63,024 bases of DNA from a virus (Duplodnaviria > Caudoviricetes). Of the stretch, positions 2,807 through 47,282 are shown piece by piece (the stretch's first letter is position 1; every line of letters begins with the position of its first letter). A program made the position numbers and the translations under genes. The notes beneath the pieces were generated by a model. It was not told the DNA's origin, made no database searches, and saw only the letters and a program-made list of their open reading frames with translations. The stretch lies in the IMG/VR virus record IMGVR_UViG_3300045120_000291, positions 1 to 63,024 of that record. One strand, written 5' to 3'.

Positions 2807-3070
2807 GATACAACTCCTTGCTGTGTGATTGGAGGAAGGAAGCCCGGATCCGATGGATTGCTAAACCTGCTTCGATGATCAGTCTAGGCAGCGTGAGCTT
2901 TCAGATGGGTTCCGGGCTATCCTTGTTTCTAGTCTGAAGGGTGAGAGCACCCTTATTCGGTCTAGTTTGACGCAGTCAATCCGTTTGTGGTCTATCGCAG
3001 GCGATGCGTGTCCTTCCTGCTAACCTGTACCAAGTCATAATGGATTCTCTCGATCCTAGTTGGCGTAGAC

Positions 3071-3535
3071 CTAATTCCAATCCTTTGTATCCTTGTTTCC
3101 GGATTGGGCCTTTCCTGCTACTCGTCGGCCTTTTGAGCCGGAACGCTTTCGCCGGGATCCTCGACCGGTTTCTGGTCGGGAGTGGGCCTCTGTCAGAAGC
3201 GCAATGCGCGCAACGACATCGTCTGGATCCATGTGTTCGTTGACACTACCGAGCGCATCGCAGACGCGCTGCCAATCTTCATAGCAGGCAATCAGCTGCT
3301 CACGCAATTCGGATTCAAGCATTTCCGCAACCATGGCAATGTCGTGTTCGAGGCTGAAGTTTTTACCGTGACCACGCTTGGTCTGGTTGTCGAACTGAGC
3401 TTGTAGCTTTTCTTGGATTTCTGCTGTCTTGAAAGAAGGTGAATTAAGACCTTCTTTGGCGTCTGAGAACACGTTGTCCATTAGACGCTGTAGCTGAGTT
3501 CTGAAATCCTGTTGTGCCTTGTTGAGAGTAGGCAT
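3071..3535 (-). CDS. Hypothetical early protein with basic C-terminal tail
   Basis: AAGGA SD, start MPTLNKAQ; first gene after a sigma70-like promoter. Confidence 0.65.
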   Translation of the reverse strand: MPTLNKAQQDFRTQLQRLMDNVFSDAKEGLNSPSFKTAEIQEKLQAQFDNQTKRGHGKNFSLEHDIAMVAEMLESELREQLIACYEDWQRVCDALGSVNEHMDPDDVVARIALLTEAHSRPETGRGSRRKRSGSKGRRVAGKAQSGNKDTKDWN

Positions 3536-3589
3536 TTGAAAGTCCTTGTGTCTAGTGATGGGATTGTGCGCGTTGCATTGCGTAGGGTA

Positions 3590-3618
3590 AGCATAACGCA
3601 TGTTATATGGCGTTACAA
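3590..3618 (-). promoter_or_regulatory. Sigma70-type early promoter
   Basis: TTGTAA-N17-TATGCT on the minus strand. Confidence 0.65.
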
Positions 3619-3685
3619 GTGGCAAACATGAGAATTTGTAATTTCCGAATTTCGAGTTTGTCGAATTTCGAATTTTGAGGTTTTA

Positions 3686-3726
3686 GCGAAGCATGCTTCA
3701 AGAGGGTGCAGGCGAAGCATGCTTCA
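3686..3726. repeat. Duplicated palindrome GCGAAGCATGCTTCA
   Basis: Identical 15-mers at 3686-3700 and 3712-3726 with a GAAGCATGCTTC palindromic core. Confidence 0.85.
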
Positions 3727-3937
3727 TTTGGAGGTAAGTTATATGAACTGTAGCTGTACGTTGAATGTGTTGGCATGTTGAAGGCTAGGAATTTATAAAA
3801 AGTAAAAACAAAAAAGGAAAATAACCTTTCAACGGCCAACGGGGGGCCCCCTGTGTTTGCGTGTGACATTCGGTTCATACGGCGCCGAAATTCGCTCCAT
3901 TCACTGACTAGACCTGACCGAACTGTTTCGTGGCCTG

Positions 3938-3985
3938 TTATTATGTTATAAATGTTATATATATTTTAATATAAAGTAGTATAGC
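3938..3985. other. AT-rich tract, candidate DNA-unwinding element
   Basis: TTATTATGTTATAAATGTTATATATATTTTAATATAAAG in an otherwise GC-balanced genome. Confidence 0.5.
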
Positions 3986-4173
3986 TAGGTAAACACTCTA
4001 CATACGCCACCGTATGGCGTCATACGTTTGAGGTTAGCAGATTTTACGTTTAGATACTATCCAAATGTTGAAATTATTTTTCTATTTTCAACGTCGCCAA
4101 CAAATCGAATAATCGCCAGCAACAATCAATTCATGAGCATCAGCTGGTCGCTTGTGGTCATCGTTGAAAATTT

Positions 4174-4227
4174 GGTATGGTTCGAGTCGAAACTCGGTAT
4201 GGTTCGACCGATGCGCTGGTATGGTTC
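4174..4227 (+). repeat. Three iteron-like direct repeats GGTATGGTTC
   Basis: Copies start at 4174, 4196 and 4218, an exact 22-bp period. Confidence 0.85.
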
Positions 4228-4279
4228 AAGTGACACTGAGTCAGCAAAACTGACATCAATCACTATCGCTCCTGATTTA

Positions 4280-4383
4280 TGAACAAATTCAGGAATGTGA
4301 ACGAATTCATATAGCTGAACGGATAATGTGACCGTTCATGATGCTGAACACCTGTTCATAAGTCTGAACAAGTTCAGGAATGT
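4280..4383. repeat. Cluster of TGAA-N4-TTCA / TGAAC-N4-GTTCA palindromes
   Basis: Sites at 4280-4291, 4298-4309, 4345-4358 and 4365-4376; TGAACAARTTCAGGAATGT occurs twice. Confidence 0.75.
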
Positions 4384-4468
4384 CAAGAGCCTGTGGATAA
4401 GTCAGCAGATAGCCACAGGGTTATCCACAGACGCTTCCGCCTGTGGATAAGTTGAAGTCAGTCGCCAG

Positions 4469-4570
4469 CTACGGGCTGGTGGCGCATATCAACAGCGCCG
4501 CGCCTAAGATGGCCGCGATGGAACAGCAGGCTAGCGCGTACCAGCCTTCTTTGAAGCGATCCGAGAGCAT
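4469..4570 (-). CDS. 33-aa single-TM micro-protein
   Basis: MLSDRFKEGWYALACCSIAAILGAALLICATSP with GAGGTG SD; below the ORF-track cutoff. Confidence 0.55.
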   Translation of the reverse strand: MLSDRFKEGWYALACCSIAAILGAALLICATSP

Positions 4571-4579
4571 GTGGTCACC

Positions 4580-4660
4580 TCAGAGCGACTTCAGCGCGTG
4601 GAAGAAACGAGCCTGCGCGATGCGACGACGCAGATTGCGGGATTTGTTCTTGATGCTCAT
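4580..4660 (-). CDS. 26-aa basic micro-protein
   Basis: MSIKNKSRNLRRRIAQARFFHALKSL with AAGGAG SD and its own promoter. Confidence 0.6.
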   Translation of the reverse strand: MSIKNKSRNLRRRIAQARFFHALKSL

Positions 4661-4690
4661 TGCGTTCTCCTTTTGCGTTATTGCAAGTAC

Positions 4691-4719
4691 AGCGTAGCAA
4701 AAACAGGCGCGTCATGCAA
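4691..4719 (-). promoter_or_regulatory. Sigma70-type promoter for the micro-ORFs
   Basis: TTGCAT-N17-TACGCT. Confidence 0.55.
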
Positions 4720-4970
4720 CGACTGTTTAATGAATTTGCCACGTTCGGCAGATTTAACGAACTGTGAATAAGTCTGTGGATAAGTAGGTCGAAAATTCAG
4801 ATCGAGCGCGATCTGTGCTAGGGTGGCGGTGAATCGATCTCGGCCTGTGGCGGCATTGGTGCGGTCGGCCAAATACACATGCACCCGGCGCGCAATTAGC
4901 ACAGAACAGGCATGAGCGCAAGGGCCAGTTTGTTAAACTGCCGGCACTCGGCAGATTTGCGAATTGGTAC

Positions 4971-4998
4971 TTGCACATAACAGGCGTTATGCTATGCT
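4971..4998 (+). promoter_or_regulatory. Sigma70-type early promoter with extended -10
   Basis: TTGCAC-N16-TATGCT with a TGn extension. Confidence 0.6.
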
Positions 4999-5052
4999 GT
5001 ACTTACTGGGGCGGTAAGCGCCTCAGCCAACCCAAACCTGAGGAGATACACC

Positions 5053-5442
5053 ATGTCGCGCAAGAACCGTCAAACCGAATCGCAGAAATCCGAGAACACC
5101 GCCCCGGCCGCGGACGCTGCCTCGCAGCAGACCGAAACCCAGAACACCGTCGTCGCGGAAGTTGCGCCGGCCCCGAAGCCTGCCCGCCTGGAGGCGAACG
5201 GCGTCAAGCAGCCCAAGGCGGGCGGTTTGTGCCGCGCTGTCTGGGACTACTGCGCGGGCGTCAAGGAAGCCACTGGCGTCCTGCCCACCGTGAAGGAAGT
5301 CAAGGCCCACGCGCAGGCGGTCGGCTGGAACCTGAACAACGCGTCCATCGAATACTACGCGTATCGCAAGTTCGCGGGCATCCGCGGACGCGTCCAGGCC
5401 CCGCCTGCTGCCCCCGCGACGGACGCCGCGACCTCCGTCTAG
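5053..5442 (+). CDS. Putative DNA-binding protein, paralog of 46785-47282
   Basis: GAGGAG SD, strongly biased codons, NGVKQPK...LC..VW...E...YRKFAGI.GR domain. Confidence 0.75.
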   Translation: MSRKNRQTESQKSENTAPAADAASQQTETQNTVVAEVAPAPKPARLEANGVKQPKAGGLCRAVWDYCAGVKEATGVLPTVKEVKAHAQAVGWNLNNASIEYYAYRKFAGIRGRVQAPPAAPATDAATSV

Positions 5443-5464
5443 TCCGCCCACAAGCTGACACAGG

Positions 5465-5490
5465 AAGCGCCCTTCTGGGCGCTTTTTGTT
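5465..5490 (+). terminator. Rho-independent terminator
   Basis: AAGCGCCC-TTCT-GGGCGCTT followed by TTTGTT. Confidence 0.85.
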
Positions 5491-5854
5491 GACTATGATT
5501 TAACATCTGCTCCATACGCTAGGGCATTGTCCGGACCATGCCTAGATGCCCCTGTGTGGACGCATGGGGCAGACATCTACTTGTCTATGGTAATGGTATA
5601 GATTGTAATCGTTGTCATTGCATGCGCTGACACAGTGACGACAGGACACGATCCGGGCCCGGCCCTGATGAAGATAAATCGTCCGGAGGCGAGCGCCTCC
5701 CCGCCCCAGCTCCGATTCTCTATTCTAACTCGACCCCTCTACTTCTCATGTGAACTATCTACATCCACTACTCGAGAGACCCATCCAAACTTCGATATAA
5801 CGCCTGTTACAAATAATCCTTGCAATCCCAAACCTTCTCGCTTACACTAAACGC

Positions 5855-6529
5855 ATGCAAAGAACTGAACGCCAACATACTTGCAGACACGGAACCTTCA
5901 AATATGGTCCGTGTGCGGACTGTTCACAAGAGGTTCTCGATAGGTATGAGATACACCAACTATCCCATCCCTCCCAGAACCCTGACCAATCTGCGCTTTT
6001 TCAGGCGCATTTCGCGGGCGGCGACTTTTCCGCCGAGCAACTCGAACACGCTTGGTTCCACTCGCAAGTTGAACCTGTGGTCACAGGTAAGCCACTCTGG
6101 TTCTTCACCAATTACCAGGCTGAGAACGATCCTGGAATCATAATTGGAGGCTATATCTGCGCGCGGAATGCAATCGAGGCGAATCAGGCGGCTGAATTAC
6201 GTGGGCTTGGTGAGCTAGTTGCTGCGAGTGCGGGAACGCGGGCACCTTATAAGACCGTGAGTCAGTTAATGCGCCAGCGGAACCGAAATGATGTCGAGAT
6301 TCTGCATGGCTGCATGTACCTCGGGTGGCTAGCCGAGAAGGCTAAGGTGACCACACTGAGCAAACTCATGACAGACGACGGACTTTTGCACGAAGTTTCG
6401 CATGCTATCAGCTTCCAACACGACGAAGACTACCTGCCTGACCATTCCTGGAAGGAATTAACGATGAAAGTCGAGGAATTGGAACAGAAAATTCCTGGCT
6501 ATTGCCCGAAATTTGAGGCGCAACCATGA
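5855..6529 (+). CDS. Hypothetical protein
   Basis: 224-aa ORF with N-terminal CxH/CxxC; ATGA overlap with the next gene. Confidence 0.65.
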   Translation: MQRTERQHTCRHGTFKYGPCADCSQEVLDRYEIHQLSHPSQNPDQSALFQAHFAGGDFSAEQLEHAWFHSQVEPVVTGKPLWFFTNYQAENDPGIIIGGYICARNAIEANQAAELRGLGELVAASAGTRAPYKTVSQLMRQRNRNDVEILHGCMYLGWLAEKAKVTTLSKLMTDDGLLHEVSHAISFQHDEDYLPDHSWKELTMKVEELEQKIPGYCPKFEAQP

Positions 6530-6939
6530 AAGTCGGCTTTACAGGCTCGCACTCAGGCATGAGCCTTGCGCAGCAGAAGTCTCTAGCTGACCTTTTTCGC
6601 GGAATTGAATTCAGTGAATTCCATCATGGTGACTGTATTGGTGCTGATGTTATAGCGCACCGGATCTGCCTCGAGAATTCCAACAGACCAATAGTGATTC
6701 ACCCGCCTGTGAAAGACACAAAACGCGCATTCTGTACGGGCGCCAACGTAACTATCCTTCCAACCGAGCCTTACCTGATCCGAAATCAGAAGATTGTGCT
6801 GGCTTGCGATCTGTTGATTGCTACGCCGCGCACGGGGATCGAGTCTTTGCGCTCTGGAACATGGTCCACAGTCCGTTTCGCTCGAAAACGCGGCAAGCAA
6901 TACATAATCATCTTGCCTGATGGAGTGAAGCGTGGATAA
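6526..6939 (+). CDS. SLOG-superfamily (YspA/DprA-like) nucleotide-binding protein
   Basis: VGFTGS, HHGDCIGAD, RNQKIV...D and SGTWSTVRFA motifs. Confidence 0.75.
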   Translation: MKVGFTGSHSGMSLAQQKSLADLFRGIEFSEFHHGDCIGADVIAHRICLENSNRPIVIHPPVKDTKRAFCTGANVTILPTEPYLIRNQKIVLACDLLIATPRTGIESLRSGTWSTVRFARKRGKQYIIILPDGVKRG

Positions 6940-7240
6940 GCACGTCTGCACAGTCTGCTTCAGAGACAGCGATTGTCATGCTGAGAAGTGTGATTGTGGT
7001 ATATCGCACTTTCCGGCTTTGTGTTGCCCTGGATGTGATTGTTGCTCGTTCGAGCAGGCTCACGTTCCGAAAGAACATCGTTTCAATGCGGGCTCCCCGT
7101 ACGAAGACGCATATTGTATGGACTGCGGAGCATCCTTTCCAAAGGAGAAGCTTTGTGTTCCTCGTGATTGGCCAGGCAAAAACCTTCCGTCAGAAGGTTA
7201 CGTCTACGTTCCATGGTTGAAACAAGTTCAATCTACATAA
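6932..7240 (+). CDS. Cys-rich putative metal-binding protein
   Basis: Multiple CxxC/CxC motifs; overlaps the upstream stop. Confidence 0.5.
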   Translation: MDKHVCTVCFRDSDCHAEKCDCGISHFPALCCPGCDCCSFEQAHVPKEHRFNAGSPYEDAYCMDCGASFPKEKLCVPRDWPGKNLPSEGYVYVPWLKQVQST

Positions 7241-7394
7241 CGGTGAATGAAATGAGCAAAGCCTCCCGAATCACCTGGAATCTTCGCAATCTGAAGAACA
7301 AGCGAAATTGTCTGTCGCGTTCTTACAGGTTCACTATCAGTAGACATCTTGTTCGCATGTGGTACAGCTTCGGTTTCAACTCGGAACTCGAACC

Positions 7395-7619
7395 ATGAGC
7401 GTTGCAGACGCGGTCATCGAAGGAATGCACATCTTCGCGAAGACGTATGGTCGCGATGCGAACGTGATCTATCTCGGTTACGACGAATACAACAAACTCC
7501 GGCACGAAAAGGACCAGCAGAAACCTCACATTGACCACACCAGAAACGGTGAGTATTGTGCAGGTCTGAAGGTCTACCGCGTCGACTTCGACTTCCATTT
7601 CCACGTGACAAGGCTTTGA
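7395..7619 (+). CDS. Hypothetical protein
   Basis: ORF in a co-oriented array (start MSVADAV). Confidence 0.5.
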   Translation: MSVADAVIEGMHIFAKTYGRDANVIYLGYDEYNKLRHEKDQQKPHIDHTRNGEYCAGLKVYRVDFDFHFHVTRL

Positions 7620-7620
7620 A

Positions 7621-7818
7621 ATGATCTTCACCGTCGGACTTCTGTCGCTCGTTGCTGCGGTCATTGTGTTCTTCTTCATCTCCTGGTGTCTGGGCAACAC
7701 GAAACTGACACAGTCAGACATGCTTCCGTTCGGTTATCTCATGATGATCCTGATTATCACCGGACTGATTGAGATATTCATCAGCTTCCTATTACTCGGT
7801 TGGAGATACATGCCATGA
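7621..7818 (+). CDS. Small two-TM membrane protein
   Basis: Two hydrophobic segments; ATGA overlap with the next gene. Confidence 0.6.
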   Translation: MIFTVGLLSLVAAVIVFFFISWCLGNTKLTQSDMLPFGYLMMILIITGLIEIFISFLLLGWRYMP

Positions 7819-8198
7819 TTTACGTTGCTTCCCGTGTAAAGCATGCGCCGATGTGGAAGGAACTGCGCGATCTCGGTTGCAAAATCGGTTCGATATGGAT
7901 CGACGAAGCGGGTGAAGGTGAGACCGGTGACTTCTCCGAGCTCTGGGATAGAATTCGGAACGAGATCAAGGGCAGTGACGCCTTGGTTCTCTATGTTGAG
8001 AAAGAGGACTTTCCTCTGAAGGGCGCATTGGTCGAATGTGGCATCGCTATGGCGTTTAGAGTTCCAATCTACATCTATACGAACGCAGTTATTGAGGGTA
8101 GGACCATGCGCCCGATAGGCTCGTGGTCATTGCACGAGAACGTCCGTTTCTGTGATTCATTGAAAGAGGCAATCGACCTCGCATCGGAGCTTGTATGA
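7815..8198 (+). CDS. Nucleoside 2-deoxyribosyltransferase-like / nucleotide N-hydrolase
   Basis: IYVAS, IKGSDALVLY and GALVECGIAMA pattern, including the catalytic-type Glu. Confidence 0.7.
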   Translation: MIYVASRVKHAPMWKELRDLGCKIGSIWIDEAGEGETGDFSELWDRIRNEIKGSDALVLYVEKEDFPLKGALVECGIAMAFRVPIYIYTNAVIEGRTMRPIGSWSLHENVRFCDSLKEAIDLASELV

Positions 8199-8836
8199 AT
8201 TACCTCGCTATCTGGATCGCAATCATCGTTGTCTGCCTGGTATTGCTCGCCTGCTCGGGCGGGGGCAATCACAAAACGAACCCTTCCGTTCCGCCACAGC
8301 AGACATCTGCCTGGCGCATCGGTCCCATCGCCAATGGCAAGAACTATTCTGAAGGCATGCCTGCATACCCAACGATAGAAGGTGCCGGCTGGGGCTTCGC
8401 CTTCCCCAGTCCCGGAGGCGGTGTCGACGCAGTAGAGAACCTGTCTCCCGAATCGCTGGTTGGCGTGAAGGCAATCACCGTGAAGTATTCCGTCACTGGT
8501 AGTGGCTTCTATGCCACGGGTGAGACCAATGTACCCGGGCGCGTAGGCTTCTGCATCCAGCGCCGAGGCGACAACTGGTCCGGTGCCGGGAAGTATCAGC
8601 AATATCGGCTCTATGGCACGGTGCGACCTTTACTGGTCCCGGGTGCGGGTCAGCAATTCACGGTCACTAGCTGGACGGATGTAAAGGGTCAGCCCGTTGA
8701 TCAAGTGGTGATCGATTCGGTGCTCAACGACCTCGGCAGCTACATGATCGTCTTCGGCGGGTCGTTCGCTAGCCACGGCGTCTATGCGACCCAACCCTCG
8801 ACCTTCCACTTCCTCGGAGAGGAGTTCGTGCGATGA
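8195..8836 (+). CDS. Putative lipoprotein
   Basis: Hydrophobic signal ending in lipobox LLAC, then an SGGG linker and a beta-rich domain. Confidence 0.7.
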   Translation: MNYLAIWIAIIVVCLVLLACSGGGNHKTNPSVPPQQTSAWRIGPIANGKNYSEGMPAYPTIEGAGWGFAFPSPGGGVDAVENLSPESLVGVKAITVKYSVTGSGFYATGETNVPGRVGFCIQRRGDNWSGAGKYQQYRLYGTVRPLLVPGAGQQFTVTSWTDVKGQPVDQVVIDSVLNDLGSYMIVFGGSFASHGVYATQPSTFHFLGEEFVR

Positions 8837-9213
8837 CCACAGTCACTCGAATGAAAATGTTGTCTGACGGTGCATTTCGGCTCAATGGGTGCCACCTTGC
8901 AGTCGGCGGGAAGGAGCTCATCATGTCGGTCAAGAATCGATTCACGAAAGAGCACATCTCGATGTCAGAAATCGCTTCTCTCGAAGTAGCTAGCGTCGAG
9001 AGCATCCACAGGTTCGGCGGAGCACTTACGCTCGGGATGGTCGGCGGGCTTGCGCTGGGTCCGGTAGGTCTGCTCGCTGGCCTTTTTACGGGTGGACGCG
9101 GACACGACACTACCTTCATCTGCAAGTTGAAAGATGGGCGCAGCTTCATGGCGACAACGTCGACTTCAGCTTACAATCAGATCCGTGGCGCGACCCTTGG
9201 AGTAGCTGCTTGA
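8833..9213 (+). CDS. Membrane protein with glycine zipper
   Basis: GGALTLGMVGGLALGPVGLLAGLFTGG. Confidence 0.65.
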   Translation: MTTVTRMKMLSDGAFRLNGCHLAVGGKELIMSVKNRFTKEHISMSEIASLEVASVESIHRFGGALTLGMVGGLALGPVGLLAGLFTGGRGHDTTFICKLKDGRSFMATTSTSAYNQIRGATLGVAA

Positions 9214-11237: not shown

Positions 11238-11369
11238 TACGGCTACAACGCGCTACAGGCGAGCGTCCGCTGTAGCGCCGCTACCCTACCGGGTACAGGT
11301 GCGCGCGTATAGGTGCGCAGCGCTGCAACCCTACAGCAGCATTCAAATGGACTCAGTAACGGGGTTACA

Positions 11370-14495: not shown

Positions 14496-14524
14496 TTGCA
14501 TACTGTCCCGATCCCGCTTATACT
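14496..14524 (+). promoter_or_regulatory. Sigma70-type promoter upstream of terminase
   Basis: TTGCAT-N17-TATACT. Confidence 0.6.
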
Positions 14525-14559: not shown

Positions 14560-15066
14560 GTGGCTCAGTTCTGGACGGAAGATGCATTGGCGCCTCAGTT
14601 GTCTGAAGGCGAGAAGCAGCTTCGTGACCGTTTTGTGAACGAGTATATGGTTGATTTTGACCAGAAAGCTGCTGCTATCCGCGTCGGCTTTCTACCTTCG
14701 TTCGCAGAGCAGTACGCCTCGGTTTTCATGCAGGAGTCCTATGTCCAGCAGAAGATTGCTGAGAAGCAGAAGGAATCTGCGACCGACGAAAAAGTCGAAT
14801 CTGAGGAAACGAAGCGCCGTATTCGTGCCGCCCTTCTGCGCGAGTCCAACTATCGTGGCCCGGGTTCTTCCCACGCTGCGCGTGTTGGCGCTTTAGGTAA
14901 GTTGACCCAGATTTACGGCATGGAAGCTCCGATCAAGACGCTGCAAGAATTGACGCACAAGGGTGGCGTCATGATGGTCCCGGCGATTGCCAGCATCGAG
15001 GATTGGGAAAAGGCTGCGCAGCTCATCCAAGAGAAGCTTCGTCGAGATAGTGAAGTCAGTGGCTAA
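14560..15066 (+). CDS. terS: Terminase small subunit
   Basis: RFVNEYMVDFDQKAAAIRVGF HTH motif; AAGGAG SD; directly upstream of terL. Confidence 0.85.
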   Translation: MAQFWTEDALAPQLSEGEKQLRDRFVNEYMVDFDQKAAAIRVGFLPSFAEQYASVFMQESYVQQKIAEKQKESATDEKVESEETKRRIRAALLRESNYRGPGSSHAARVGALGKLTQIYGMEAPIKTLQELTHKGGVMMVPAIASIEDWEKAAQLIQEKLRRDSEVSG

Positions 15067-19067: not shown

Positions 19068-19096
19068 TTGCAAATCGATAAGGCTCATGTTACATT
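19068..19096 (+). promoter_or_regulatory. Sigma70-type promoter for the capsid gene
   Basis: TTGCAA-N17-TACATT. Confidence 0.55.
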
Positions 19097-19192: not shown

Positions 19193-20218
19193 ATGGCCAG
19201 TGGCACCGTTCGGATCGCCGACGTCGTCGTACCCGAAATCTTCACTCCGTACACCCAACAGCTGACCGAAGAAAAGTCGCGCTTGATCCGATCCGGCGCG
19301 GTTGCCCGCGATGCCGTGTTGGACACGCTGCTCGCCGGCGGCGGTCTCACGTTCAATAACCCGTCCTTCAAGGACCTGGACAACGACGCGGAAAACGTCA
19401 GCTCGGATGACCCGGCTGTCAATTCCACGCCGAACAAGCTGGGCAGCGCGACCGAAATCCAGGTGCGCCTGTCCCGCAACAACTCGTGGAGCTCCATGGA
19501 CCTCGCTGCCGACCTGATCGGCCGTGACCCGCTCGCAGCCATCAGCGGCCGCGTTGCGGACTACTGGGTCCGCCGTCTGCAGCTCGCTTTCATCGCAACG
19601 ATGAAGGGCATCTTCCTCAACAACGACGCTGCAACCGACGCGTATCACACGCAGTACGATATGACCCATGACGTTTCGGGTAGCTCGTACAGCGCAGGCG
19701 TGACCAATTTCACCGCTGAAGCGTTCATCGACGGTGCCCTGACCATGGGCGACTCGATGGAAGCACTCGGCATGATCTTCGTCCACTCCATTGTGTACGG
19801 TCGCATGCAGAAGAACAACCTGATCGACTTCATCCCGGACTCCGAAGGTCGCATCAACATCCCGACCTTCCTCGGCCGTATCGTGATCGTCGATGACGGC
19901 ATGCCCAACACCGGCGGCGTGTTCGATAGCTGGATGTTCGGCGCCGGCTCCGTCCGCATGGGCATGGGCTCTCCGTTGGTTCCGACCGAGACGCTGCGCG
20001 TCCCATCGGCCGGTAACGGCGGTGGCCAGGATACCCTGTTCAATCGCGTCGAGTGGTGCATCCACCCGGTCGGCAACGCCTATGTCGGCACTGCTGCATC
20101 CGGTGGTCCGTCCAACGCCTCGAGCTCCAACAACCTGGGCGCGGCGGCTTCTTGGCAGCGTGTCTTCCCGGAACGCAAGCAGATCCACATCGCGCGACTG
20201 AAGACCCGGGAATACTAG
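19193..20218 (+). CDS. Major capsid protein
   Basis: IADVVVPEIFTPY, DP...I...VADYW, HS.VY, TFLGR.VIVDD and HPVG motifs; strong codon bias; followed by a terminator. Confidence 0.92.
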   Translation: MASGTVRIADVVVPEIFTPYTQQLTEEKSRLIRSGAVARDAVLDTLLAGGGLTFNNPSFKDLDNDAENVSSDDPAVNSTPNKLGSATEIQVRLSRNNSWSSMDLAADLIGRDPLAAISGRVADYWVRRLQLAFIATMKGIFLNNDAATDAYHTQYDMTHDVSGSSYSAGVTNFTAEAFIDGALTMGDSMEALGMIFVHSIVYGRMQKNNLIDFIPDSEGRINIPTFLGRIVIVDDGMPNTGGVFDSWMFGAGSVRMGMGSPLVPTETLRVPSAGNGGGQDTLFNRVEWCIHPVGNAYVGTAASGGPSNASSSNNLGAAASWQRVFPERKQIHIARLKTREY

Positions 20219-38920: not shown

Positions 38921-39053
38921 GGTGTTACCTTGTTTGACTGCTGTTTGTGGCCCCTCTTTACCGGGTAGCTGTACGCAACCCCCCGGCCCCGCTACCCCTA
39001 CAGCGGGTAGACTATCAAAACGCTTATACGCGCATACAGCCCTATCACCTCTG

Positions 39054-41051
39054 CTAGTTGTACGCGATATCCTGTAACATCTTCTCTGCTTCTTTGATAT
39101 ACCATTGATAGTCAATATCCAGCGGCAGCGTATCAGGCAAATCCATTAGCGGTTTCGCTCCATCTGAACGAGGAACTTTGTTGCCTGACGACGCATATAC
39201 CATCTCACCTTCGGCTTTTTCGGCATAGTACCAGCGGATTGACTTACCGAGGTAAATTCCATCTTTTACTGCACCGCCCTTTACAGTTCGTACACTAACA
39301 AACTTACGAATATCATTGCAAGTGCTGATGGTCGTTGCCAATGGGACTTTTTGGACGAGGAACTTCTCAATCGCTTCGACGCAGATGGTGTTGGTGGGAT
39401 TCTTGTGCAGCCACATTGACCGATCGCTATCGTCGTTCCAGGGATTCGCGTAGGCCCCCTTCGTCTTAGTTTTACCGTCAGTTTTGACAGCAATGTAGTT
39501 ATTGACGTCTTTGCTGTAGAGAGCAGAGTATTGGACGCATTCCATATCGAAGCGTGTGTCGATTTCCCATTGCTTGATGATTGCTTCCATACGCAACTTC
39601 AATCGCTTGTGGCATTTGATTACAATGCCGTCCGTGTTTGCGCTGACCACATGGATGTCGGCAATCTCTAGTCGCTCAATCAACAGAAGCAACGAAAGCT
39701 GGCCGGTAATGGTGACCTGGATCAGCAAGTCTGGCGCATACAGGTTCGACCATTTAGAACCGAGCTTGCCGAACGAACCGTTCAGCACAATCTTGAATCC
39801 GTTGGCAAAGACCTTGCGACCTGCTTTCTTGGCTGCAACACGCGCATCGAATGCGATGCGGTACACGCGCAGGAAATTCGGTCCCATGTGATAGGGATAC
39901 AGGCCTTGGTTCAGAATGATCTTAGGATAGAACGAGGTTACGTCATAGTCCCATAGCTCGTATTCGTCATCCGCCACATGCGAGACACACTTCTCACAAC
40001 TATGCAGTCCGCCAATTCCCATCTGGTATTCGCGACCAGCGATGCCTAATTTTAGGTCTGCAATCTCTGGGGGCATCTCAATTGAGCCATGATCTGCAAC
40101 GATAAACGCTGCATTCTTAATGACATTGAATGCGTACTGAAGTGTATCCGAACTGTACTGCAGAAACGCGGGGGCCCGGTAGCGGTACAGGGTGCCAGGC
40201 ATTATAAGCGGGCGGGCGACTCGCTTCCCATTCAGTGCAGCGACTTCATTCGTGAAGACAGTTTCTGCAATCTGAGCATCTGATTTAGAACGTAGGTCGA
40301 CGCCATACTGCTGGCTGAGGGTCTCTCGAAGCTTAATTTGCTCATCGAGCCCGTTATACAAGTCCCGGGTGGCTTTTAAGTCACTGTTGACGTTATACCA
40401 GCGAGTGATCGCAATCTGTTGAGCAGAGAGCTTTTTACCGGGTAGGAATGGGAGATCCTGCATTCGTCGTGAATGTAGGCGACCAGCATAGATTTTCAAC
40501 GAAGCTCGAAGCGGAGCGATCTCGATCAAGTCAATGTGGTCAACCTTTAACGGCTTCACTTTGTAACCCTTCAACACGTCGCGAGGGTTTTCACCGCGAA
40601 CGATTATTGCATGCGCAGCATCTTCAAGAAGGTGAAGAGGATACCCTGCCAGCGCTAGTGCAGTAATCACAATATCGAAGTTGATGCTATTGAAACCGAC
40701 AATCGTGAATGTCGTTAAGATCCATTCGAGTTTTTTAACATCGAGGGGTAGATCTGGTGTCGCTTCGATATAGACAATCTTGCCTGTATTCAGAGACAAG
40801 AAGGCTGCGAGGAAGTAGTTCGGGTAGACTTCGATATCGAATAGGAATCGGTCTTTCTTTGGATTGATTGCATGTTCGATCAGTTCCTGGTCGGTAAACA
40901 CAGGAATATCGAAGTTAAGTGCTTCTTGCAAGCCTGGCAGATAATCATCTGCAAGCCAGACAGGTGCGGGAGGGGTTCGTTTGACTTTCTGTTTCAGAAC
41001 CTTGACAACTGGTTCGTCTCTCCAGAACATTCCTAGAGCATCACGACGCAT
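39054..41051 (-). CDS. DNA polymerase, family B-like, with 3'-5' exonuclease
   Basis: FDIE, GFNS..FD exonuclease motifs; YDVTSFYP, K..LNG.FGK, SANTDG polymerase motifs. Confidence 0.9.
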   Translation of the reverse strand: MRRDALGMFWRDEPVVKVLKQKVKRTPPAPVWLADDYLPGLQEALNFDIPVFTDQELIEHAINPKKDRFLFDIEVYPNYFLAAFLSLNTGKIVYIEATPDLPLDVKKLEWILTTFTIVGFNSINFDIVITALALAGYPLHLLEDAAHAIIVRGENPRDVLKGYKVKPLKVDHIDLIEIAPLRASLKIYAGRLHSRRMQDLPFLPGKKLSAQQIAITRWYNVNSDLKATRDLYNGLDEQIKLRETLSQQYGVDLRSKSDAQIAETVFTNEVAALNGKRVARPLIMPGTLYRYRAPAFLQYSSDTLQYAFNVIKNAAFIVADHGSIEMPPEIADLKLGIAGREYQMGIGGLHSCEKCVSHVADDEYELWDYDVTSFYPKIILNQGLYPYHMGPNFLRVYRIAFDARVAAKKAGRKVFANGFKIVLNGSFGKLGSKWSNLYAPDLLIQVTITGQLSLLLLIERLEIADIHVVSANTDGIVIKCHKRLKLRMEAIIKQWEIDTRFDMECVQYSALYSKDVNNYIAVKTDGKTKTKGAYANPWNDDSDRSMWLHKNPTNTICVEAIEKFLVQKVPLATTISTCNDIRKFVSVRTVKGGAVKDGIYLGKSIRWYYAEKAEGEMVYASSGNKVPRSDGAKPLMDLPDTLPLDIDYQWYIKEAEKMLQDIAYN

Positions 41052-42059: not shown

Positions 42060-42252
42060 TTCCTCGACTCCTTGCGCATTCAGCGTTTGCAGCTTCAATG
42101 ATGGGTTGCAGCTTATGGACCCATTCGTATTTGACTTGTAGAACAGTCATTTCTTCCCCAGGAAACTCTTTGTATTGATAGCCTGCCTCATCGAGATGTT
42201 TCTTGAAGATTTCAAGTTTCCATGGGTCGATGCAAACGCCAGCGGTTTTCAT
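42052..42252 (-). CDS. Hypothetical protein
   Basis: TGATG overlap with the dpdA stop; AGGAG SD. Confidence 0.6.
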   Translation of the reverse strand: MKTAGVCIDPWKLEIFKKHLDEAGYQYKEFPGEEMTVLQVKYEWVHKLQPIIEAANAECARSRGNA

Positions 42253-43172
42253 CAGAATAGCTCCTGCAGGCCAACGCGAAAGATCTCGTTCTTGTTGAGA
42301 TTCATCATTGCGTTGATAACTCCGTAAGCCCAGAGGTTATACGCTGCGCGGGATTCGTAAATGGTAGCGAGTCGCTCAAGCGTGAACCCTTGCTTCTCCA
42401 GCATCTGCAGAACGTAGTCCTGCTCGATTGCTGACAGTGTAGTTATATGTTGCCCCGCGTCATGTCGAGAGGGGGACTTCTCAGATATATTGAGCGGCCC
42501 ATGCTCAGGGGACACAATAGAGCCGAAAGCTGCGGTCTGAATCCAAGAAGACGAGTCACATGAATACCACGGATAACGCTCCATGATAGGTATTGCAGTG
42601 ATGCCGAATCCATGGACCTTAACCTTTGCTCGACCTGATCCATCGACAAGGTATCTATCCCACATTCTATCGAGCCAGATGCAGAGCTGCTTTGTAGAAC
42701 TTCCCACCATACCGCCCAAAGTGATGTAAGGGTAATTGGCGACATAATGTTCAAGGTATCGTTCATCCTCGCCTGCATGGAAACACGGTAGAGGCCTAAC
42801 GCCGCGGAGCTCCATCTCGTATTGGTTTCTCCAAGTTTGTAGAGGATCTCCAATTCCGTCCAGAACCGAAGCCATAGCAATGCCATCTTCTTTGCGGATA
42901 ATGTCACTATTGCGCTGGATGTACTCACAATAATCACTCACCTTGAGATCGACGCCAAGTGTGAACGCCGAGAATGCGCCACTGTCCAAAAAGATTGAAG
43001 CATTGTCTGCGCGCATTTCGTCGACGTATTTCTGCTTGCCGACATAATGCCAACTTTCAAGGATGTGTGGAAGGTTCTGGACCAGAGACTTTTCATGGTC
43101 ATTGAGTTTGACGTACCTGTTCTGCCCAGGTTTGTAGTTATTAGAGTAAACGGCAGCAAGAAAGATGTTCAG
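42252..43172 (-). CDS. dpdA: DpdA, DNA 7-deazaguanine transglycosylase (TGT-like); probable CTG start
   Basis: FLDSGAFS, P.FH.GE, LGGMV, VHGFG and PWYS.DSSSW motifs. The frame is open 52 codons upstream of the ATG at 43016, to a CTG overlapping the upstream TGA. Confidence 0.88.
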   Translation of the reverse strand: MNIFLAAVYSNNYKPGQNRYVKLNDHEKSLVQNLPHILESWHYVGKQKYVDEMRADNASIFLDSGAFSAFTLGVDLKVSDYCEYIQRNSDIIRKEDGIAMASVLDGIGDPLQTWRNQYEMELRGVRPLPCFHAGEDERYLEHYVANYPYITLGGMVGSSTKQLCIWLDRMWDRYLVDGSGRAKVKVHGFGITAIPIMERYPWYSCDSSSWIQTAAFGSIVSPEHGPLNISEKSPSRHDAGQHITTLSAIEQDYVLQMLEKQGFTLERLATIYESRAAYNLWAYGVINAMMNLNKNEIFRVGLQELF

Positions 43173-43417
43173 AGGTGTTCTTCCGTAATCTTGCGGTCAG
43201 GAGTTTTCCGAGAGTTATATTCCCAAACGAGTTCTTTGGCATTAACACGCTTCTCCCAGCCAGGCAAGAAGATTACATGAAACTCGGTCAGACCTTTGAA
43301 GATTTGTGGATTATCGATTACTCGAGTGCGTTGCGGGTCAAGTCCGCGTTTCGCCCAGTTCTCTTTGAGCCACGTGCGCCCGTGCATCCAATCTCGACCT
43401 ACGATTAAAGTCAGCAT
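43169..43417 (-). CDS. Hypothetical protein inside the modification operon
   Basis: GGAGGTG SD, start MLTLIVGR. Confidence 0.6.
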   Translation of the reverse strand: MLTLIVGRDWMHGRTWLKENWAKRGLDPQRTRVIDNPQIFKGLTEFHVIFLPGWEKRVNAKELVWEYNSRKTPDRKITEEHL

Positions 43418-43455
43418 AAGGCGCACCTCCAAAAGCTATTGTACCATAACCCCCG

Positions 43456-44124
43456 TTATCGTGCAAGCTCCATGAACTCAGCGCGAGCAGAAACTTCACT
43501 CAGAAGAACGCCTCGCAACGCACTGGTGATCGTCATATGCCCCTGCTGGCAGATGCCACGTGACTCCATGCACATATGACGCGCCTTAATCATAACGCCG
43601 ACGCCTTTCGGCTTCAAAGTTGTTTCGATACAGTCAGCGATCTGTGCAGTCAGTCGTTCTTGGACTTGAAGGCGCCGAGCAAACGCATCAGCAACCCTAG
43701 AAAGCTTCGAGAGGCCGACAATCTTGCCGTTCGGAATGTACGCGATTGTCGCAGTGCCGAAGATCGGGGCAAGATGATGTTCGCAATGCGAATAGATTGG
43801 GATATCCCGGACCATGACCATCTGGTCATATTTCTCTCCTCCGTCTTCGAATTCTTTCATCAGCGTTGCAGGCTCAATAGCGTAACCTCCGAACCAGTGC
43901 GTGAACGCTTTCGCAACTCTGTTTGGCGTATCTTGCAGCCCTTCGCGTAAATCATGTTCGTTGCCGGGTTCAATTAACCTCAACAACTTGTCGATATGCA
44001 CAGCTTTTGGGCCGTGGAGAGGTGTGAATTTTCTTGGTTCGGCCTGATTTTTGACATATTCGAATCCGTTCCAGACAAGGTCAGGATTGAAAGGGTCTGG
44101 TGCACCGATTTGGGGACTGCCCAT
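43456..44124 (-). CDS. folE: GTP cyclohydrolase I
   Basis: REGL.DTP.RVAK, SHCEHHLAP, GLSKL.R, RRLQVQERLT and H.CM..RG motifs. Confidence 0.97.
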   Translation of the reverse strand: MGSPQIGAPDPFNPDLVWNGFEYVKNQAEPRKFTPLHGPKAVHIDKLLRLIEPGNEHDLREGLQDTPNRVAKAFTHWFGGYAIEPATLMKEFEDGGEKYDQMVMVRDIPIYSHCEHHLAPIFGTATIAYIPNGKIVGLSKLSRVADAFARRLQVQERLTAQIADCIETTLKPKGVGVMIKARHMCMESRGICQQGHMTITSALRGVLLSEVSARAEFMELAR

Positions 44125-44558
44125 TACTCCACCTCGTACGTGGCAGCGCATTTGCGAGTTTCTTCAACTTCGCAATGTTTCAGATAGACACCCGTATTGC
44201 CAAGCAATTCAGGCCCGACTACTTCGACCAGATACATGGCAATGTTTTCTGCCGTCGGGTTGAAGGAAACTATGACCACAGTGGGGTCGAGTAGCTTCAC
44301 GCATTCAGCTAGAGGGTCTTTCTCCCACATGAGCATCTTGTGGTCCCAGTTGTCCTCGAGCCACATGCAGAGCTTTTGTTTGATAACTGAAAAGTCAATT
44401 ACCCGGCCGACGTTGTCGAGTTCTTCATCTGTCTTAAAAGCTGCGCAAGTGAAGAAGATGCGGTAATTGTGCCCGTGAAGGTTGGCGCATTTACCCTCGT
44501 GGCCGTGGACTCGATGTCCACAGCTTATGTCATGGTATCGCTTTGCTGTCCAGCTCAT
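44124..44558 (-). CDS. queD: 6-carboxytetrahydropterin synthase
   Basis: GHR, C..LHGHNY, IDF, WDH, PTAENIA and V.ET motifs. Confidence 0.95.
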   Translation of the reverse strand: MSWTAKRYHDISCGHRVHGHEGKCANLHGHNYRIFFTCAAFKTDEELDNVGRVIDFSVIKQKLCMWLEDNWDHKMLMWEKDPLAECVKLLDPTVVIVSFNPTAENIAMYLVEVVGPELLGNTGVYLKHCEVEETRKCAATYEVE

Positions 44559-45972
44559 GCTGTTCCTCGTCGAGGTAGGTTATTACTTCAGGAATGTTGT
44601 TGATTCGAAACGCTGTACGCCGCATAAAACAAGGTCCGCAGGTGCCACAGTGCTGGGAGCCTGCGCGGTAGCAGCTCCAAGTCAGATCAAGGGGAGCGCC
44701 AAGCGCCATTCCGTAGGCGACAATCTCGTGTTTCATCATGTTGCCGACCGGCATCATCACATTGATTGACTTTCCATCCGCTACCGCGAAAGGAAGCATG
44801 TCATTAAAGCGGGAGATGAACTCTGGTTCGTTATCGGGATAAGCCCCTGCTTCTTCGAGGTTGTTCCCTAGCACAATCGTTCCGAACCCATTCGCTTCCG
44901 CGTAAGCAGTAGCAACGCTGAGAAGCAACAGATTTCGAGCAGGAACCCATTCGTAAGCGAACTCGGCGCCTGCTTCCCCGCCTGCAACCTTGCTGTCTGA
45001 GTCAAGTAGTGGGGAATCCCCCTTCTTGTAGATGGGCAACGGGAACAGGGTCACTTTGACACCCATGCGTTCTCCGACATCCATTACCGCCTTTATTTCA
45101 GGGTCTTCTGCGCGGCTGCCGTACATGAAATGGATTAACTCGATTGACTCGAATCGTTCCTTTGCTGCCGCAGCAGACACAACACTATCCAATCCGCCGC
45201 TGCAGACGACCAGTGCTTTCGCTGGCGCTAAACGCCGAAGGCGTCGAAGCCTCTTGTGGATTTCTCCGTCTTCGGTGATCGTGAACGACCCGTATGAATA
45301 CGGTGTAATCATCTGCGGATTATCGACGGGAATGTAGTGCCTGGCACTAGCAAAGACAACCATACGATTATCTTGATGATACCAGATTGGTCTGTAGTTG
45401 CAAGCGAAGTAGATTTTATTCGGTTGCGAATCGTGGACCGCGAGGATAGCGAAACTGCCTTTCAATAACTTGACCGCAGTCGAAAAAACTTTCTCAAAGT
45501 CGACTTCGTTATAGGCGCGAAAATTGACTGCCTTTAACGATTCGGATTCAAGTAGTTCCAGGATTGCGGCACTGTCGATATTCGTATCGAGTGCGTGAGT
45601 GCGCAATTCTTTGTCGTTGGCGATGGTGCCGTTATGAACGATGCCCCAGCCGTCTGGACGAAGCCTATACGGTTGCTGATCCTGCTCGCGCTTGTCTTTG
45701 ACGTATTCGGTCGTCGGTTCGGCGCGCAGGTTCGCGATGAAAGACAGGTTGCCACGTCGGCGAGTAAAGAATTCATTGTAGAACTGTAGGGATTTGATAT
45801 TCCCTGGATGCTTTTCAATCTGTCTGTGCGCTTCGGAGGCTGCTTCGTACCCGAACCCGTCCCGCCCTCGCTCCGTGCTGCGTTCGCAAATCGAATACAA
45901 CATCTGATTGAAGTCTTTCACATGCGAATCGTGACGAGCATTCACATAAATAGCGCCAATGATTGCGCACAT
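44530..45972 (-). CDS. queC: Gat-QueC: class II glutamine amidotransferase fused to 7-cyano-7-deazaguanine synthase
   Basis: N-terminal MC (Ntn Cys), RGRDG.G, HNGTI.N; SGGLDS, VPARN, YPD, TWSCY...HCG.C..C..R. Confidence 0.95.
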   Translation of the reverse strand: MCAIIGAIYVNARHDSHVKDFNQMLYSICERSTERGRDGFGYEAASEAHRQIEKHPGNIKSLQFYNEFFTRRRGNLSFIANLRAEPTTEYVKDKREQDQQPYRLRPDGWGIVHNGTIANDKELRTHALDTNIDSAAILELLESESLKAVNFRAYNEVDFEKVFSTAVKLLKGSFAILAVHDSQPNKIYFACNYRPIWYHQDNRMVVFASARHYIPVDNPQMITPYSYGSFTITEDGEIHKRLRRLRRLAPAKALVVCSGGLDSVVSAAAAKERFESIELIHFMYGSRAEDPEIKAVMDVGERMGVKVTLFPLPIYKKGDSPLLDSDSKVAGGEAGAEFAYEWVPARNLLLLSVATAYAEANGFGTIVLGNNLEEAGAYPDNEPEFISRFNDMLPFAVADGKSINVMMPVGNMMKHEIVAYGMALGAPLDLTWSCYRAGSQHCGTCGPCFMRRTAFRINNIPEVITYLDEEQHELDSKAIP

Positions 45973-45975
45973 GGG

Positions 45976-46784: not shown

Positions 46785-47282
46785 TTACTGGGACGGGGTC
46801 GCAGCCACCGGAGCCGGCGCGCGGCCGGAGATGCCGAAGAACTTGCGCCAGCGGGCGAATTCCGCCTTGACGTTGCCTTCGTTCAGACCCTGTTCCTTGG
46901 AGCGGACCAACGACTCGGCGATGGTTGCCGGGCGCTTCTGCTCGGTCGAGATCTGGTCGAAAATCGCCCAGGCCTTGCCGCAGAGGGTTTCGGGCTTCGG
47001 CCGGCGGACGCCGTTGGACTCGGGCATCTTCTGGGCTTCCTTCGCAGCGAGGGCGTCGGCCTTGGCCTTTTCCTTCGCAGCCGCGTCGTCCTTCTTCTTC
47101 TGTTCCGCAGCAGCCTTGTCGGCGGCTTTCTTTTCATCGGCCGCTTTCTTGTCGGCCGCTTTCTTGGCGTCGGCTTCGGCTTTCTTGCGAGCCTTTTCCT
47201 CGGCCTGCAGCTTGGATTTTTCAGCCTTGTCAGCCGCGGCTTGCGCTTCGGCGGCTACTTGTTCGGGAGTCTTGTCGTTCAT
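46785..47282 (-). CDS. Putative DNA-binding protein with Lys/Ala-rich (histone H1-like) arm
   Basis: KKAAD repeats, then NGVRRPK...LC..AW...E..RWRKF.GI.GR; GAGGT SD. Confidence 0.75.
   Translation of the reverse strand: MNDKTPEQVAAEAQAAADKAEKSKLQAEEKARKKAEADAKKAADKKAADEKKAADKAAAEQKKKDDAAAKEKAKADALAAKEAQKMPESNGVRRPKPETLCGKAWAIFDQISTEQKRPATIAESLVRSKEQGLNEGNVKAEFARWRKFFGISGRAPAPVAATPSQ

Follow-up and report, generated by a model that had tools for sequence, protein, structure and literature searches.

Does a phage whose guanines are predicted to be hypermodified keep the target of that modification out of the DNA on which host RNA polymerase begins transcription? The question is raised by positions 3536–5052 of virus record IMGVR_UViG_3300045120_000291 (Duplodnaviria; Caudoviricetes), the full 63,024 bp of which (GC 52.3%) were analysed and are referred to here as the window. 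The window carries, on its minus-strand arm, a complete set of genes for 7-deazaguanine DNA modification as judged by profile matches, among them the gene for the DNA transglycosylase DpdA. A first-pass annotation had reported that the dinucleotide GA, the known DpdA motif, and its complement TC (together GA/TC) are abundant genome-wide yet absent from seven spans covering putative early promoters and an AT-rich tract, and had proposed both that selection keeps promoters read on incoming DNA free of the modified base and that the modification adds an early/late layer of regulation. We have found that 11 candidate promoters of early and replication genes lack GA/TC in the part of the spacer next to the −10 element and in the discriminator and leader, and that other non-coding DNA stands at expectation. 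The explanation we favour, to which we assign a probability of roughly 0.45, is that purifying selection against 5′-GA-3′, the DpdA target, causes this depletion.

GA/TC is depleted just downstream of the −10 element

Promoters were defined, with GA/TC not consulted, as intergenic matches to TTGNNN-N16–18-TANNNT facing a gene on the same strand; gene calls came from our own heuristic. Thirteen candidates result, with a 17-nt spacer in 12 of them, TTGCA in 10 and a −10 element of TATGCT in 6, and we take them to be putative σ70-type promoters belonging to a family TTGCAN-N17-TAtgcT. A look-up of sequencing runs containing the window listed one of DNA, kept as assembled contigs, and none of RNA. 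At the fourth position of the −35 box, 10 or 11 candidates have C, depending on which of two overlapping matches (TTGGTA at 4964, TTGCAC at 4971) is taken; 2 have T there and none has A. TTGA, which holds the GA of the TTGACA consensus, is thus found in 0 of 13 −35 boxes.

When the genome is partitioned, the 13 promoter zones contain 40 GA/TC against 85.7 expected (observed-to-expected ratio, O/E, 0.47), intergenic DNA outside them contains 304 against 314.4 (O/E 0.97) and coding DNA has an O/E of 1.15, so that the whole intergenic deficit sits in the promoter zones. (In this partition the second of two mini-ORFs described below was entered as 4476–4577 instead of 4469–4570, which shifts 7 nt between coding and intergenic DNA.) The 25 nt that follow the −10 element are free of any constraint from the search pattern, and here we count 19 GA/TC against 37.1 expected from local composition, a total matched or undercut in 0 of 5000 shuffles; for the 11 promoters that do not precede late genes the figures are 13 and 31.5. 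GA/TC is the sole depleted class of ten dinucleotide classes in this segment, and GC is enriched (34 against 21.5). Sense-strand GA (0.035 per nt) and TC (0.026 per nt) both occur there at about half their density in the flanks.

The depletion is not only motif-specific and composition-controlled but also localised to the promoter and the initial transcribed zone. GA/TC density is 0.133 per nt upstream of the −35 box, 0.056 between the −35 and −10 elements, 0.061 over the 24 nt that follow and 0.150 further downstream. In 5-nt bins after the −10 element it is 0.031, 0.031 and 0.015 and then 0.154 per nt, against 0.12–0.15 in the flanks, and the low-density bins match the discriminator and the initial transcribed region. 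The 25-nt segments are unrelated to one another (mean pairwise identity 0.268, with one pair at 0.64), and the distance from the −10 element to the nearest downstream GA/TC is 8–28 nt in the 11 promoters of the non-late set.

Six of the seven spans in the first-pass list sit on σ70-like candidate promoters and their leaders, up to the Shine-Dalgarno sequence; the seventh, the AT-rich one, belongs to a predicted replication origin and is not a promoter. Four of the seven lie in 3536–5052 and are described below. The fifth (50111–50161, minus strand) covers the −10 element and leader of promoter 50168–50140 (TTGCAT-N17-TACTAT), which precedes the gene for a UvrD-like helicase (50113–48686) and has a GA directly after its −35 box. 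The sixth (61388–61429, minus strand) covers promoter 61434–61406 (TTGTGA-N17-TATGCT, with a GA within the −35 box), before gene 61368–61126 and a primase-helicase gene, and the seventh (62375–62412, minus strand) covers promoter 62420–62392 (TTGCAA-N17-TATGCT) together with the leader, which runs to the Shine-Dalgarno sequence GGAG. Three other minus-strand promoters, at 47355, 57554 and 58707, lie on further GA/TC-free runs of 35–39 nt. The first-pass annotation had named the spacers at 47327 and 57526 as exceptions, and GA/TC is indeed seen in both: promoter 47327–47355 (TTGCAA-N17-TAGTGT) has 3 GA/TC in its spacer and none in the 24 nt beyond its −10 element; promoter 57526–57554 (TTGCAT-N17-TATGCT) has 3 TC in its spacer and none in the following 23 nt. 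The remaining minus-strand pattern matches are 58679–58707 (TTGCAA-N17-TAACCT), 54690–54718 (TTGCGA-N17-TATAAT) and 43438–43466 (TTGCAC-N17-TACAAT), the last of which has ATAAC-N4-GTTAT in its spacer and precedes gene 43432–43169 and dpdA.

Promoters of the packaging and head genes are not depleted

Two plus-strand promoters precede presumed late genes, whose functions are taken from PHROGs. One (14496–14524, TTGCAT-N17-TATACT) lies before the gene for the small terminase subunit (14560–15066) and has CCGATCC in its spacer; the other (19068–19096, TTGCAA-N17-TACATT) lies before the gene for the major head protein (19193–20218) and has ATCGAT in its spacer, both as described in the first-pass annotation. 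The first GA/TC follows the −10 element by 4 nt and 2 nt, respectively, and the pair has 13 GA/TC over 96 nt, where the remaining 11 promoters have 25 over 528 nt (Fisher P = 0.0038).

This difference would be expected if the mark worked as an early/late switch, with GA-free early promoters indifferent to the modification, and packaging and head promoters, which bear GA/TC in spacer and discriminator, silent on the injected, modified genome and active on new, unmodified DNA. The contrast in the position of the first GA/TC, the further plus-strand pattern matches at 5820 and 10981 with 3 and 4 GA/TC in their cores, and the effects of modified bases on initiation described in one study (PMC4838386) all point in this direction. 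We nevertheless regard such a switch as unlikely. There are two late promoters only; the replication-arm promoters at 47355, 57554 and 58707 also hold 2–3 GA/TC in their spacers; and a single σ70-like consensus is common to all the promoters. In addition, folE, queC and dpdA mutants of phage CAjan have been made and sequenced, which implies that the modification is dispensable for growth of CAjan (PMC7544227). What stands of the proposed early/late layer is that the packaging and head promoters are undepleted (P = 0.004), and the layer is built on just these two.

GA/TC-free runs are in excess genome-wide and in the 3536–5052 region

GA/TC occurs at 8889 sites in the window (14.1% of positions; O/E 1.13), which bears out the abundance noted at first pass, and all seven listed spans are without GA and TC, their coordinates being exact to one base at the edges. 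We compared run lengths with 300 whole-genome dinucleotide-preserving shuffles, a composition-matched null of the kind that the first-pass annotation had called for, and the excess holds up. There are 5 runs of at least 60 nt against 0.2 expected, 9 of at least 50 nt against 1.37 and 12 of at least 44 nt against 4.06, with none of the 300 shuffles reaching the observed number at any of these lengths; for runs of at least 38 nt (19 against 12.0) 10 of 300 shuffles do so. Among the four mixed dinucleotide classes, five runs exceed the length expected once per genome for GA/TC and none does for AC/GT, AG/CT or CA/TG. Within 3536–5052 we count 3 GA/TC-free runs of at least 45 nt where 0.36 would be expected, a number reached in 0 of 500 shuffles. 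No excess of empty runs is seen for the nine remaining dinucleotide classes, and mononucleotide shuffles in 50–200-nt blocks give an expectation of 0.03–0.05 for the 3 runs of at least 60 nt. In total, GA/TC in the region does not fall significantly short of expectation (168 sites, 179–185 expected, P 0.06–0.16), which, taken with the excess of empty runs, indicates that the dinucleotide is clumped rather than scarce.

We considered whether chance, coupled with selective listing of GA/TC-free runs, could account for the pattern. The list is selective: by length its spans rank 3, 4, 5, 9, 12, 13 and 18 among all runs, and it omits the longest, GC-rich ones (47549–47659, 111 nt; 11267–11343, 77 nt; 40164–40218 and 38956–39010, 55 nt each; 53164–53214, 51 nt). 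Those that were translated (47549–47659, 53164–53214 and 40164–40218) encode protein segments rich in Pro, Ala and Gly or otherwise poor in Asp, Glu and Ser. Moreover, under a more stringent test, in which automatically called intergenic DNA was shuffled segment by segment with GA/TC counts kept, 6 runs were observed against 3.9 (P = 0.15), and the intergenic-to-coding O/E ratio of the window, 0.81, is inside the range of control genomes (0.80–0.97). Against this stand the shuffle tests on whole-genome and regional runs and the result for the 25 nt after the −10 element of promoters that were defined without GA/TC, so that chance with selective listing seems to us a very improbable account.

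The GC-rich runs have features of their own. Run 47549–47659 (GC 0.79, against a genome mean of 52%) lies within gene 48085–47366 on the minus strand (phrog_7864, function not known) and encodes a linker rich in Pro, Ala, Gly and Arg (RRPRTGPAGPATPAPGRVAPHTPAARPTPAARGPRQG). Runs 11267–11343 and 38956–39010 (GC 0.65–0.67) lie wholly or partly outside called genes, contain internal inverted repeats (GCTGTAGCGCCGCTAC... and CTACCCGCTGTAGGGGTAG) and have in common the motif GCTACCC (6 occurrences genome-wide); a role as terminators or some other structured element is possible.

A divergent control region around a predicted origin

Region 3536–5052 is bounded by leftward genes ending at 3535 and rightward genes starting at 5053, and on its sequence features is a divergent early control region around a predicted DnaA-type replication origin. 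Its first GA/TC-free span (3563–3630, minus strand) holds the leftward early promoter and leader towards gene 3535–3071, with a −35 box of TTGTAA at 3618–3613, a 17-nt spacer containing ATAAC-N4-GTTAT and a −10 element of TATGCT at 3595–3590. The second (3929–3997) is the AT-rich tract (GC 0.25), which has three TGTTAT repeats and is best read as a candidate DNA-unwinding element of the origin because iterons and DnaA boxes adjoin it. These comprise three GGTATGGTTCGA-like iterons at a spacing of 22 bp (4173–4231), which contain TC and GA, and a cluster of DnaA boxes (4392–4783) with perfect TTATCCACA matches at 4392, 4421, 4442 and 4775 and a box with one mismatch at 4763; all four perfect TTATCCACA matches of the 63-kb genome fall within this cluster. 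A repeat search also found three copies of a 22-nt repeat, TGAACAAnTTCAGGAATGTnAA, at 4280–4386. DnaA boxes, iterons, repeats and AT-rich tract together have the layout of a replication origin.

The third span (4669–4712, minus strand) covers a second leftward promoter (−35 TTGCAT at 4719–4714, N17, −10 TACGCT at 4696–4691) and its leader, and ends at the Shine-Dalgarno sequence AAGGAG. Directly behind this promoter, inside the origin region, are two minus-strand mini-ORFs, one of 26 strongly basic amino acids (4660–4580) and one of 33 amino acids (4570–4469) that is hydrophobic and has a Cys-Cys pair. The fourth span (4963–5023, plus strand) holds the rightward early promoter and leader towards gene 5053–5442, with a −35 box of TTGCAC at 4971–4976, a 16-nt spacer containing ATAAC-N4-GTTAT and a −10 element of TATGCT at 4993–4998. 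The promoters at 3618–3590 and 4971–4998 have in common a 20-nt inverted block that includes ATAAC-N4-GTTAT. This motif is present in the spacers of 3–4 promoters of the window (3596–3612, 4977–4992 and 43444–43460, with TAAC-N4-GTTA at 50146–50162) and looks like a putative operator of a phage regulator; among ten small early proteins searched in Pfam none matched a helix-turn-helix family. We note that genes 5053–5442 (plus strand) and 46785–47282 (minus strand), each the first gene behind one promoter, are paralogous (PHROG families 21588, 18634, 17772 and 11298, functions not known), and that no relative of gene 5053–5442 was found in viral contigs. For a substitution-level test of selection we considered loci encoding UvrD-like helicases, 6 of which were found in viral contigs; at 43% identity or less these were too distant to use.

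The window encodes a 7-deazaguanine modification pathway

The modification cluster occupies 42252–46695 on the minus strand and encodes DpdA, a TGT homologue (43170–42252, of which 42252–43016 matches phrog_887 at 5.5e-82), FolE (44151–43456; GTP_cyclohydroI, 2.5e-66), QueD (44558–44124; PTPS family, 1.2e-24), Gat-QueC (45972–44530; a QueC domain, 3.9e-54, fused to a glutamine amidotransferase) and QueE (46695–45976; Radical_SAM, 8.7e-10). The full-length DpdA frame aligns end to end with the proteins of MiCath (77% identity) and 9g (73%). A search, which turned up 228 phage records carrying DpdA, puts the identities at 78% (MiCath and NP1), 74% (9g), 70% (iggy group) and 68% (slur01). ATG, GTG and TTG are all missing from the frame before residue 55, although these first 54 codons are conserved with MiCath and 9g, and an ORF finder restricted to common start codons shortens DpdA to 254 amino acids. 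Translation probably begins at 43170 with a CTG, which shares bases with the TGA stop of the 87-amino-acid gene in front (CTCTGAAC, 43160–43175, minus strand), an overlap that suggests translational coupling of dpdA.

That guanine in the window is hypermodified, and mainly at GA, can reasonably be inferred from homology. Phage 9g has the same five-gene set and carries G+ at 25% of its guanines, and CAjan, which has a plain QueC, carries preQ0, according to the introduction of one account (PMC10516641). Since the gene set of the window equals that of 9g, its DNA would carry a 7-deazaguanine derivative that is probably 2′-deoxyarchaeosine, and GA accounts for similar shares of all G in the two genomes (27.0% in the window and 26.3% in 9g). 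Two further papers describe the targets of related enzymes: in iggy only GA is modified, at 97% of its GA sites (PMC10484667), and in CAjan both GA and GGC are modified, at nearly all GA sites (PMC7544227). The identity of the window's DpdA to the iggy-type and slur01 enzymes (68–70%) suggests that its target may be GA only.

A megablast of positions 3000–9000 against a phage collection found no near relative of the window. Its DNA polymerase is closest to those of NP1-like Pseudomonas and Xanthomonas phages (60% amino acid identity) and then to that of iggy (53%).

Promoter depletion in related and unrelated phages

We applied the same gene caller and promoter pattern to 16 DpdA-carrying and 15 DpdA-free phage genomes, using bases 1–111500 of 121750 for T5 and the Seuratvirus slur01 as a stand-in for CAjan in all comparisons. 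Nine of the 15 DpdA-free genomes entered the promoter comparison, those with fewer than 5 candidates being excluded (lambda 2, HK97 1, D3 0, YuA 1, PB1 2 and PaP3 4); PaP3 was pooled with LUZ24 in the positional analysis in 5-nt bins only. For each genome we calculated the O/E of GA/TC in the 25 nt after the −10 element (zone O/E) and the ratio of this value to that of the same genome's other intergenic DNA. Zone O/E and ratio are 0.52 and 0.53 for the window, 0.49 and 0.84 for iggy, 0.62 and 0.82 for R7M, 0.65 and 0.91 for yong3, 0.71 and 0.87 for 9g, 0.74 and 0.94 for MiCath, 0.76 and 0.89 for slur01, and 0.80 and 0.94 for SD04. They are 0.98–1.01 and 0.94–1.04 for NP1, DoCa3 and VPv62, and 0.80–1.30 and 0.94–1.39 for the nine DpdA-free phages. 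The median ratio is 0.91 for the window and its 10 relatives (DpdA at least 66% identical) against 1.09 for the nine DpdA-free genomes, and with the genomes grouped into lineages, 7 with such a DpdA and 6 without DpdA, the two sets of ratios do not overlap (exact P = 0.0006, or 0.001 when the window is left out). The share of TTGA among −35 boxes, 0–23% in these DpdA lineages and 25–100% in the controls (medians 7% and 33%), also separates the two completely. When five phages with more distant DpdA proteins are added, the contrast becomes weaker, with a lineage-level P of 0.005 for the ratio and 0.012 for TTGA.

Three broader measures were rejected as signatures of DpdA. Genome-wide depletion of GA/TC does not follow DpdA, with O/E values of 1.13 for the window and 1.12–1.13 for the NP1 group against 0.91–0.94 for the DpdA-free HK578, SSL-2009a, SETP3 and TLS; general intergenic depletion makes no distinction (P = 0.38); and the number of long runs per genome (5 in the window, 11 in iggy and 5 in NP1, against 0–1 in five controls) was dropped because most such runs in iggy and NP1 are coding repeats rich in Gln, Ala and Pro.

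As for individual relatives, candidate promoters of NP1 (e.g. 7296, 35001 and 56155) show a recurrent GGGC-TTGCA(T/A/C)-N17-TACAtT, and in several of them GCAATC or a close variant directly follows the −10 element, which places a TC at the presumed start site. In iggy the intergenic O/E is 0.56–0.59 against 0.81 in genes, far below all other genomes examined, and a non-coding stretch of about 510 nt at the right genome end (60074–60586) is almost without GA/TC, with runs of 152, 95 and 80 nt; 3179–3286 was noted together with it.

Values of this kind would be expected if modified guanine in GA, or the base exchange itself, were mutagenic and eroded the dinucleotide wherever selection is weak, and iggy, with O/E values of 0.79 genome-wide, 0.56 in intergenic DNA and 0.59 outside promoter zones, would fit such erosion. 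For the window we hold it to be the least probable of the accounts considered here, given a genome-wide O/E of 1.13, a value of 0.97–0.98 for non-promoter intergenic DNA and a depletion that falls on functional promoter zones instead of on the DNA under least constraint. Equally low intergenic O/E values (0.77–0.89) also occur in several phages without DpdA.

Discussion

We have presented evidence that GA/TC is lacking specifically where transcription would begin at early and replication-gene promoters of the window. If purifying selection against the DpdA target is the cause, DpdA enzymes of this clade would convert the guanine of GA to a 7-substituted 7-deazaguanine, and selection would act on both strands where host RNA polymerase melts and first copies the DNA, protecting a segment from roughly the −10 element to 15–25 nt downstream. 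With a GA-free initiation zone, early genes could fire from the injected, fully modified genome. A transcriptional cost of this kind has been described for synthetic templates. In the work of Raindlova et al. 2016 (PMC4838386), every template G was replaced by 7-substituted 7-deazaguanines; with vinyl, ethynyl or phenyl at position 7, transcription by the RNA polymerases of E. coli and B. subtilis was almost abolished, initiation and not elongation being the blocked step, and G-33 of the −35 box was singled out as important. In TTGACA this G is followed by A and would therefore be a DpdA target, which in TTGCAN it would not be. By our own comparison, the cyano group of preQ0 is about the size of ethynyl, and by analogy the modification may hinder transcription initiation in the window phage. 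Unlike the DNA expected in the window phage, these templates had all G replaced, and by bases with substituents other than the cyano, amidino and amido groups found in nature.

Several observations weigh against selection on the DpdA target as the cause. The earlier proposal that promoters are kept free of the modified base is supported in part, but the promoters are not GA/TC-free as wholes: 10 of 13 have GA/TC either inside the −35 box, as in TTGTGA and TTGCGA, or no more than 3 nt downstream of it. The DnaA boxes have GA on one strand, and boxes and iterons alike contain GA/TC. In the promoter zones GGC/GCC (17 against 17.1 expected) and GGT/ACC (21 against 20.3) are not avoided, which means that the explanation needs an enzyme strict for GA. 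H and methyl substituents were tolerated by RNA polymerase in the template study (PMC4838386), and our literature search found no data on effects of preQ0 or G+ in promoters. Among the genomes compared, the window alone is extreme, since in other relatives the depletion after the −10 element barely exceeds their own intergenic depletion (ratios 0.82–0.94). The three NP1-like phages, with a DpdA 78% identical, show no promoter depletion (O/E 0.98–1.01), and EC151, VpKK5, Baskent_P4_1, ART and RHEph06, with a DpdA 52–60% identical, resemble the controls (TTGA 22–67%, ratios 0.95–1.27). Spacer depletion is as strong in some DpdA-free phages (O/E 0.63 in T1, 0.50 in Rtp and 0.77 in T5) as it is in the window (0.63). 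Finally, the window and its 10 relatives with a DpdA at least 66% identical share a replication-gene set and form one broad clade; as all the signal-bearing genomes belong to it, an inherited promoter style is inseparable from an effect of DpdA.

The main rival explanation is that the depletion is a by-product of an inherited promoter and leader architecture, unrelated to modification, in which TTGCA-type −35 boxes are combined with RNA-level or regulator constraints such as avoidance of GGAG/CTCC upstream of the ribosome site, ATAAC/GTTAT operator half-sites and GC-rich discriminators. This possibility draws on the generic nature of spacer depletion and the restriction of the cross-genome signal to one clade, and also on local features: in 4 of the 11 non-late promoters a Shine-Dalgarno sequence of the GGAG type (GGAG, GAGGAG) supplies the first GA/TC past the −10 element, and in a fifth promoter the GA/TC-free stretch ends at GGTGAG, GC is enriched in the same zone, and ATAAC-N4-GTTAT recurs in 3–4 spacers, with GTTAT found three times in the AT-rich tract. 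Avoidance of Shine-Dalgarno or anti-Shine-Dalgarno sequences, however, would cover GGAG/CTCC contexts only, whereas every GA and TC is missing, and the depletion is already present in the first 5 nt after the −10 element (0.031 per nt), which are mostly untranscribed discriminator. DpdA-free phages show no such leader bias, with zone O/E values of 0.80–1.30, and the one depleted class of ten is the known DpdA motif. We therefore consider an origin in inherited architecture possible but somewhat doubtful.

Selection against the DpdA target would have parallels in better-known systems. Dam-controlled promoters, such as those of IS10 and phage Mu mom, and the avoidance of palindromes in phage genomes are instances in which the placement of a modification target in regulatory DNA matters. 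The logic is the same, a short target in regulatory DNA being shaped by selection and tied to modification or replication state; what would set the window apart is a hypermodified guanine made by the phage itself, a motif of 2 nt and, as its sequence suggests, a signal that consists in absence from the initiation zone.

Among phages with 7-deazaguanine in their DNA, iggy is like the window in having a DpdA 70% and a DNA polymerase 53% identical, TTGC-type candidate promoters and only 0.012–0.024 GA/TC per nt just after the −10 element. It is unlike the window in being GA-poor everywhere (genome O/E 0.79), whereas in the window GA is plentiful (1.13) and its depletion is confined to promoters; the base of iggy is dPreQ0, with a strict GA motif (PMC10484667). 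Phage 9g shares FolE, QueD, QueE, Gat-QueC and DpdA (74% identical) and a similar GA share of G, but shows only a mild depletion after the −10 element (O/E 0.71, ratio 0.87). Seuratviruses resemble the window in the DpdA of slur01 (68% identical) and in the zone O/E of slur01, yong3 and SD04 (0.65–0.80), but their −35 boxes are more often TTGA (13 of 56 candidates), and dPreQ0 is found also at GGC in CAjan (PMC7544227), a motif that the promoters of the window do not avoid. The words promoter, intergenic and transcription are absent from the text available for the iggy (PMC10484667) and CAjan (PMC7544227) papers, and our search, which did not extend to supplementary per-site modification maps, found no prior report of GA-free promoters in deazaguanine phages.

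A more far-reaching version of the favoured explanation would have GA hypermodification both reshape the promoter grammar of the clade, with TTGCA in place of TTGACA and, at early promoters, a bubble and initial transcribed region without GA on either strand, and serve as a replication-coupled timer of late promoters; we think this improbable.

To our knowledge, work on hypermodified phage DNA has dealt almost exclusively with protection from restriction and CRISPR, and little of it with how host RNA polymerase copes with such a template or with whether phage genomes are adapted to it. The idea can be tested directly in the cultured phages iggy, 9g and CAjan, and dpdA and queC mutants of CAjan exist. 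If selection against the DpdA target is indeed responsible, the pattern described here would be the first sequence-level sign of a transcriptional cost of 7-deazaguanine marks and would account for the TTGCA-type −35 boxes of the clade; and if late promoters respond to the mark, it would represent a new kind of replication-coupled switch.

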